A stretch of 64,000 nucleotides of DNA, taken from Candidatus Bathyarchaeota archaeon. Lineage in GTDB: Archaea; Thermoproteota; Bathyarchaeia; 40CM-2-53-6; RBG-13-38-9. The position numbers were made by a program, and so were the translations under genes. The notes below the pieces were generated by a model. It was not told where the DNA came from and searched no databases. It saw only the letters and a list, made by a program, of their open reading frames with translations. This document shows positions 37,848 to 38,389 of this stretch, piece after piece. Within the stretch, counting starts at the first letter, position 1, and the number at the start of each line of letters is the position of its first letter. The DNA lies in contig CAWECG010000001.1 in NCBI GenBank assembly GCA_963807605.1, forward strand, positions 32,001 to 96,000. Direction: 5' to 3'.

Positions 37848-37921
37848 CTCGCATCCATCTTCGCTACTGTAGCTATCGAATCAAACATTGAAGGTAAAGA
37901 TTACGATCAGCCCGTCACGTT

Positions 37922-38173
37922 TGGTGGGGCCGAAGGGATTTTCATGGCCTCTGAGGCCATTTTGAACCCTCGACTTCCGCCACGTCTTTGTCTACGGGTT
38001 TCTTCCCGCGCTCCTGAAGTTCTTCATTCCTCGGTAGGTCAGCAAACCCTTATTCAGGTCTCTTCTGGAGCCCTTGGCGGTCGACTTCCAACAATCCTTG
38101 TTGGTTCGACTGTCGTCATCCCTGACTAGAATCCGTCGTGACATGCCCAGTAGCATGATCTATCTACGGCCCC
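37922..38173 (-). tRNA. tRNA-Trp(CCA) with five introns (10/11, 28/29, 37/38, 45/46, 59/60) and encoded CCA end
   Basis: Exons 38173-38164, 38130-38112, 38073-38065, 37999-37992, 37974-37961, 37938-37922 join to GGGGCCG UA GUCU AGUCAGGGA UGAC G ACGGG CUCCAGA CCCGU AGGUC GAGGG UUCAAAU CCCUU CGGCCCC A CCA (77 nt). Each junction follows BHB geometry. AT-rich TATA-like element at ~38208-38222. Confidence 0.9.
38000..38064 (-). ncRNA. Box C/D-like guide RNA within the 37/38 intron of tRNA-Trp (partly degenerate)
   Basis: GGGUUUG-CUGA (D') puts the +5 G opposite C39; C' AUGAAGA; guide CUUCAGGAGC faces GCUCCAGAAG around C34. Boxes C and D are poor matches. Confidence 0.55.
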
Positions 38174-38389
38174 TTTGGGATGATCGACCCCAACCAGATG
38201 ACCGCACTTAATTTAATTAAACTTTGCTGGGGACCTGAAGGAGCTCTAAACTATTTTGTCAAAGGATGAACGTCACGTTTTTTGGAGTTCATTGTTAAGA
38301 TGCGAGCCTCCGGCGTACTATTCAAAAGACTCGGAAAGACTTAATGCAACCATAAAGTCAATAGTGACGCCCAGACGGTCTGAAACAAG

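Follow-up and report, generated by a model that had tools for sequence, protein, structure and literature searches.

The tRNA-Trp locus

The window, a 64,000-nt stretch of DNA from a Bathyarchaeia genome, contains a 252-nt locus on the minus strand (38173..37922) that becomes a tRNA of 77 nt when five segments are taken out (Table 1). The locus occupies a 540-nt gap with a mobB-like gene on one side and an acetyl-CoA-synthetase-like gene on the other, and the neighbouring protein has relatives in Bathyarchaeia MAGs. Six exons of 10, 19, 9, 8, 14 and 17 nt make up the product, exons 3 and 4 being the shortest, and ARAGORN identifies the joined exons as tRNA-Trp(cca). In the cloverleaf, the acceptor stem has 7 bp, the anticodon and T stems have 5 bp each, and the D stem consists of three pairs and U13-U22. 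The anticodon loop reads CUCCAGA, the variable loop is 5 nt long, and A73 is followed by a CCA that is encoded in the DNA. A sequence-only reading of this DNA had proposed a tRNA-Trp(CCA) gene split by five introns, all beginning with A, with two exons of only 8 and 9 nt. The call, each of the intron coordinates and these details were confirmed, and the spliced model, instead of scoring poorly, gave a clean cloverleaf in ARAGORN.

Table 1. Features of the tRNA-Trp locus, in the order of transcription (positions in the window; intron sites in tRNA numbering).
Feature	Position	Strand	Remarks
Putative archaeal promoter	38208..38228	-	BRE-like purine stretch 38228-38222; AT-rich TATA-like box 38221-38208
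5' leader, two candidate decoy segments	38177..38196	-	conserved in the family; spacer up to the TATA-like box varies
Exon 1	38164..38173	-	tRNA positions 1-10; invariant across all orthologs
Intron 1 (33 nt, 10/11)	38131..38163	-	HBh'; exon strand = acceptor-stem positions 5-8
Exon 2	38112..38130	-	tRNA positions 11-28
Intron 2 (38 nt, 28/29)	38074..38111	-	HBh'; one A-C mismatch; 5-bp intron stem
Exon 3 (9 nt)	38065..38073	-	tRNA positions 29-37 with the anticodon CCA; no change among 38 aligned sequences
Intron 3 (65 nt, canonical 37/38)	38000..38064	-	hBH; box-like and antisense elements inside
Antisense to exon 4	38052-38044	-	within intron 3
D'-like box	38042-38039	-	within intron 3
C'-like box	38027-38021	-	within intron 3
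Antisense to 5' splice region	38019-38010	-	within intron 3
Exon 4 (8 nt)	37992..37999	-	tRNA positions 38-45
Intron 4 (17 nt, 45/46)	37975..37991	-	HBh'; exon strand = anticodon-stem positions 40-43
Exon 5	37961..37974	-	tRNA positions 46-59
Intron 5 (22 nt, 59/60, T loop)	37939..37960	-	strict hBHBh'
Exon 6	37922..37938	-	tRNA positions 60-76; discriminator A73, encoded CCA at 37924-37922

The putative promoter is conserved in all same-family orthologs. As read from the sequence, its BRE/TATA-like block lies 48 to 35 nt upstream of the mature 5' end, which fits the distance of 30-49 nt reported for Thermofilum tRNA promoters (PMC3218864), and transcription would start near 38191. A plus-strand open reading frame of 61 aa (37944-38129) overlaps the tRNA locus; it was rejected as a gene and is considered spurious because the indels of the orthologs in this stretch are not multiples of three.

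The genome comprises 2.65 Mb in 5 contigs and is 94% complete. In a genome-wide spliced alignment with a forced CCA anticodon, the locus scored 108 and the next real locus 43, the next real hits being other tRNAs. The sequence-only reading had raised the question of whether this is the genome's only tRNA-Trp gene; with scores of 108 against 43 or less, no second Trp-like locus was found in the 94%-complete genome by Rfam, ARAGORN or genome-wide spliced alignment. Its prediction that standard tRNA finders would miss the gene was borne out for two of them, as the unspliced locus receives no call from ARAGORN, with or without intron mode, or from Rfam RF00005 at gathering scores. A scan for anticodon loops with a canonical bulge-helix-bulge (BHB) motif returned 6851 raw and 1059 filtered matches; it was set aside as unspecific, and spliced alignment was used instead.

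The Rfam tRNA model has only 19 matches in the whole genome, and we therefore conclude that most of the tRNA genes of this genome are heavily interrupted. An anchor-based census, which is incomplete, recovered about 31 CCA-encoding tRNA genes. When run on the whole genome in intron mode, ARAGORN made 31 calls, several of which are implausible (SeC, Pyl, introns of 400-700 nt). Outside the window, the multi-insert tRNA-like locus G000:C4:661380-661625 has the same layout of exon 4, 45/46 intron and T-loop intron and is 83% identical to the tRNA-Trp locus over 50 nt. Inspected by eye, it shows CAG in the anticodon loop and no encoded CCA at its end; it seems to be a different tRNA gene with a paralogous set of introns.

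Splice motifs and splicing machinery

Intron boundaries were set by spliced alignment, in which only shifts yielding an identical product were allowed. All five junctions obey the archaeal rule of a 4-bp central helix and a 3-nt bulge that is cut after its second base, on both strands. The central helix is fully paired in intron 1 (CCGU/ACGG), intron 4 (CCGU/GCGG, including one G-U pair) and intron 5 (UUCA/UGAA, lying between the T stem and a 6-bp intron stem), and it has three of four pairs in intron 2 (GACG/CGCC) and intron 3 (CUCC/GAAG, with a conserved C34-A mismatch). With boundaries fixed by the cloverleaf, the chance per site of at least three of four pairs is about 0.15, and that of four pairs about 0.02. 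These helices are all as first read from the sequence; what has been refined is their class, in that intron 5 alone has a strict motif and that of intron 3 leans on the anticodon stem.

The exon strands of the motifs of introns 1, 2 and 4 are tRNA positions 5-8, 23-26 and 40-43, which belong to the mature acceptor, D and anticodon stems, respectively. Because these motifs borrow bases of the mature stems, the precursor would not be a cloverleaf, and its introns are probably removed in an order. Nearest-neighbour folding of the full precursor placed the central helices of introns 2, 3 and 4 at a probability near zero, and a fold carrying all five motifs lay about 30 kcal/mol above the minimum. 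In a local fold, the central helix of intron 4 reached a probability of 0.86-1.0. We read the unfavoured motifs of introns 2 to 4 as a limit of the energy model, with a hint of stepwise or protein-assisted folding, and not as evidence against splicing.

The genome encodes two paralogs of the splicing endonuclease EndA (PF01974), with lengths of 188 aa (L026) and 175 aa (L027). One is a catalytic, alpha-type paralog that matches the catalytic subunits of crenarchaeal enzymes (2cv8_A, 1e-38; 3p1z_B, 3e-37) and aligns closely in the regions predicted to hold the Tyr/His/Lys triad and the crenarchaeal-specific loop. The other is divergent and beta-like, in keeping with a structural subunit. We infer from these sequences that the two would assemble into an (alpha-beta)2 heterotetramer, the type of EndA that is able to cut relaxed motifs at non-canonical sites. 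An RtcB ligase is also encoded (PF01139, 574.9 bits, G000:C3:1123606-1124913).

Orthologs and the presence or absence of introns

Matches to the DNA of the locus were found in 37 of 41 relatives from the order and in 54 of a class-wide sample of 151 genomes. We collected a first set of 23 orthologous loci from 19 genomes of the order and a second, class-wide set of 20 loci from other families and orders, and all of them yield tRNA-Trp after the removal of one to five introns. The locus is kept in synteny in every relative searched. In related genomes, the exons are identical to those of the reference gene at 74-77 of 77 positions. Introns 1 and 2 are 33-92% identical, with length changes that are not divisible by three, and their lengths among relatives range from 15 to 34 nt and from 16 to 88 nt, respectively.

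Pairing within the motifs is nevertheless retained where the intron sequence changes. In relatives in which the end of intron 2 differs, its central helix has four of four pairs and the intron stem is kept despite a changed sequence, and the central helix of intron 4 is fully paired in every ortholog. For intron 5 (alignment A2), 91% of cells are paired and five of the six intron-stem pairs have changed on both sides; compensating substitutions occur in both the T stem and the intron 5 stem. This pattern suggests that the exons are under purifying selection and that the introns drift yet keep their pairing.

Several relatives have the exact predicted junction in place of an intron. Intron 1 is missing from three loci without any D-arm intron (L018, L020 and L046), the T-loop intron 5 from L045, and the 45/46 intron 4 from L047, a locus of the same order. 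In one clade of the order, the 10/11 intron is replaced by a D-loop intron with a perfect palindromic central helix. Other orders have a tRNA-Trp gene with one (L037), two (L039, L040), three or four introns, with additional sites at 25/26, 43/44 and 51/52. Those examined have no 45/46 intron and a 5-nt variable loop, and some have a 43/44 intron instead. Overall, the class Bathyarchaeia has a tRNA-Trp gene with one to five introns. The orthologs with one or two introns reach Rfam tRNA scores of 52.7 (L037), 39.2 and 38.9 bits, and ARAGORN -i also identifies them as tRNA-Trp; the spliced product of L037 is identical to that of the reference gene at 69 of 77 positions. Recognition of these few-intron orthologs by Rfam and ARAGORN is an independent, motif-free check of the tRNA-Trp call.

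Introns 1 and 4 are preceded by the same exon hexamer, CCGUAG, and have similar 3' ends. In L012 (G022:C5), the introns at 10/11 and 45/46 are both 17 nt long and identical at 16 of 17 positions, which points to recent copying or gene conversion between two sites that share the exon hexamer. Judging from these similarities, introns 1 and 4 are paralogs. Intron 1 would have arisen when intron 4 was duplicated into another site that provides the same exon strand, this direction of copying being our reading of the sequences.

A 5' leader complementary to the tRNA

Both segments of the 5' leader are complementary to parts of the tRNA. The segment at 38191-38184 (GGGGUCGA; the match reaches 38196) is complementary to the 3' acceptor strand, and the segment at 38183-38177 is complementary to exon 2 at 38122-38116 (D loop and 3' side of the D stem). 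The duplex between the leader and the 3' end has an energy of -20.4 kcal/mol; among random genomic 40-mers, 0.13% reach this value. When the 18-nt leader was added in partition function calculations, the probability of the intron 1 central helix rose from 0.00 to 0.92-1.00, and that of the true acceptor stem fell from 1.00 to 0.00. In folding models, the leader thus mimics the acceptor strand and is needed for the splice signal of intron 1 to form. The leader is complementary to the 3' end in 15 of 15 loci with the 10/11 intron and in 7 of 24 loci without it (L037 included), so the link between leader and intron is real but not exclusive.

The alternative that the leader and the 3' end form a BHB processing stem was rejected, as the duplex shows a single unpaired base and not two 3-nt bulges. 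In the literature searched, we found no description of a leader decoy for tRNA splicing.

Three other leaders or upstream sequences deserve mention. In L037 (367-503), which belongs to another order and whose sole intron is the canonical one, the leader is perfectly complementary to the 3' end of its own tRNA over 14 bp (-30.4 kcal/mol). This leader resembles a degenerate tandem repeat of the tRNA's first ~21 nt and is unexplained by the idea of a decoy for intron 1. Two tRNA genes outside the window, G000:C4:65450-65612 and C4:321486-321632, have a spare copy of the acceptor 5' strand directly upstream; by eye, the former has an apparent intron right after position 8 and the latter a D-loop insert.

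Intron 3 as a putative box C/D guide

Matches to the locus from other orders span only exon 3, intron 3 and exon 4. Across the class, 38 distinct intron 3 sequences keep a CNGA box, a short stem, an AUGANGA box and two antisense stretches. Both boxes are invariant in the 38 sequences, the stem between them covaries, and the boxes together with both antisense elements are invariant or nearly so. The antisense pairing is formed in 87.9% of cells, compared to 30-52% when the partners are slid. The first antisense stretch pairs with the last two intron bases and with exon 4, so that C39 falls on the fifth base counted from the D'-like box. The second stretch is complementary to positions 31-37 and to the first three intron bases, and the pairs of those three bases covary; its register falls on C34 in lineages with a 12-nt spacer and on U33 with the 13-nt spacer of the reference genome. 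At the termini, the boxes are degenerate, consisting of a purine motif across the 5' splice site and NNGA 3-4 nt from the 3' splice site. A search of 37850-38250 against Rfam at E values up to 10 gave no match, and no curated C/D family therefore fits intron 3. Genes for fibrillarin and Nop5 adjoin each other elsewhere in the genome (G000:C4:129327-130743).

Based on this conservation, intron 3 most likely doubles as a box C/D-like methylation guide for both sides of the anticodon loop, with C39 placed where methylation would occur. Local folding favours the guide helix over the splice motif of intron 3, which implies a conformational switch.

Introns of tRNA-Trp with guide functions have been described in other archaea. 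The intron of Haloferax tRNA-Trp directs the methylation of C34 and U39 (PMC7714728), and the tRNA-Trp intron of Sulfolobus solfataricus forms a stable circle of 65 nt that is complementary to the regions of 34 and 39 and has no consensus boxes (PMC3326292). As in Haloferax volcanii and S. solfataricus, the intron described here is at the canonical 37/38 site of tRNA-Trp and has two antisense stretches over the 34 and 39 regions (PMC7714728, PMC3326292), and as in Sulfolobus it is 65 nt long with no evident consensus terminal C/D boxes. The putative guide described here differs in its clear C'/D'-like boxes, with C39 as the fifth base from D', and in its degenerate terminal boxes.

Discussion

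We propose that the locus is a functional, single-copy tRNA-Trp(CCA) gene that is driven by its own promoter, contains five introns that would be cut by EndA and joined by RtcB, and uses the leader and a guide in intron 3 as helpers. We estimate the probability of this reading, which draws on comparative sequence evidence, at about 0.9.

Five freely chosen deletions can make many sequences resemble something, and the locus could in principle be a chance product, or an assembly artefact, that is merely editable into a tRNA. The cloverleaf, though, fixes the boundaries to within a few bases, and the cutting rule still holds at all five sites. The locus was found independently in more than 35 assemblies, its score of 108 stands against a background of 43 or less, and standard models recognise its one-intron orthologs. 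The comparative data have in practice already refuted this explanation, to which we assign a negligible probability. It is also conceivable that the locus is a decaying pseudogene or relic, with the working gene in another place such as the 6% of the genome that is unassembled. The genome is indeed 94% complete, and two of the central helices have a mismatch. A relic would not, in contrast, be expected to retain five splice motifs and a promoter block across an entire order, or exons identical at 74-77 of 77 positions across genera while its introns diverge and its stems change in compensating fashion. Synteny is kept in every relative searched, and no other Trp-like locus was found. Taken together, these observations make a pseudogene highly improbable.

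An explanation that we regard as very unlikely, though slightly less so than a pseudogene, accepts the gene as real and questions whether EndA removes every one of the five inserts. That at 45/46 (17 nt), for instance, could be retained in the mature RNA as an enlarged variable arm, or an insert could be removed by another route. The 45/46 site does lie in the variable loop, where class II tRNAs have long arms, and thermodynamic folding disfavours some of the motifs. Against this, the 45/46 segment makes no stable arm, having only a 2-bp stem, and in every ortholog its central helix is fully paired at precisely the BHB register. L047 lacks the segment, as do the tRNA-Trp genes of other orders that were examined. 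Finally, the copy at 45/46 in L012 is identical at 16 of 17 positions to the insert at 10/11, where an insert would be intolerable in the D stem.

Under the reading of a working gene with five EndA introns, transcription from the BRE/TATA promoter would produce a precursor roughly 270 nt long, some 18 nt of which are leader. The heterotetrameric (alpha-beta)2 EndA would excise the five introns at their bulge-helix-bulge motifs, and RtcB would join the exons and probably circularise the introns. Excision probably follows an order. Intron 4 would have to leave before the anticodon stem, the frame of intron 3, can close, and the canonical intron 3 is probably the last to be removed. By holding the 3' end, the leader may serve as a spare acceptor strand and leave the real bases 5-8 free to pair with intron 1. 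Intron 3 most likely has a second role as a box C/D-like guide, with pairing to either side of the anticodon loop. We go further only tentatively, at a little under even odds, in suggesting that the precursor is a programmed folding device, in which the leader is required for the cut at intron 1, the splice order is fixed and intron 1 was copied from intron 4.

The peer-reviewed maximum is three introns per archaeal tRNA gene (PMC8450103, PMC4033280, PMC3218864). A bioRxiv preprint of October 2026 (10.64898/2026.10.13.758758) gives up to five intervening sequences in one Asgard tRNA gene, and for this reason the five introns described here tie the highest reported count; the suggestion of the sequence-only reading that they may exceed described cases does not hold. 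We found no paper on Bathyarchaeia tRNA introns in the literature searched. What extends beyond that literature is the proposed leader decoy, together with the paralogy of introns 1 and 4.

Several features are shared with the multiple-intron tRNA genes of the Thermoproteales (Pyrobaculum, Thermofilum, Caldivirga; Sugahara 2007/2008, reviewed in PMC4033280, PMC4090602, PMC8450103), namely an (alpha-beta)2 EndA with the crenarchaeal-specific loop, which is predicted here, related introns at different sites, which have been taken as intron transposition, and motifs that in some cases form only after the removal of another intron. The published maximum in that group is three introns per gene, compared to five here with exons of 8 and 9 nt. 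The lineage here is Bathyarchaeia, and the conserved leader with its candidate decoy segments is likewise a difference. Asgard tRNA genes resemble those of the present genome in that most are interrupted, with up to five intervening sequences per gene, many D-arm introns that a standard annotator misses and repeated intron gains at BHB-competent sites (10.64898/2026.10.13.758758). They belong to another phylum, and the Asgard count is a motif-free census of inserts of at least 10 nt, whereas here each of the five introns has a BHB motif, relatives have exact intron-less junctions, and introns 1 and 4 are paralogous. Ectopic and multiple tRNA introns also occur in the red alga Cyanidioschyzon merolae, a eukaryote in which the introns are fewer and the endonuclease differs in its architecture (PMC3728597, PMC9602550).

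Neither ARAGORN nor the Rfam tRNA model detects the sole known tRNA-Trp gene of this organism. With interrupted tRNA genes missed in this way (19 matches in a genome that is 94% complete), Bathyarchaeia genomes are expected to look tRNA-poor, and they may be marked down on quality criteria that rely on tRNA counts. Exons of 8-9 nt and motifs that compete with mature stems push the known limits of EndA substrates, and both the splice order and the role of the leader are directly testable in vitro. The series of orthologs with one to five introns, together with a near-identical pair of introns, provides a natural series for the spread of archaeal tRNA introns.
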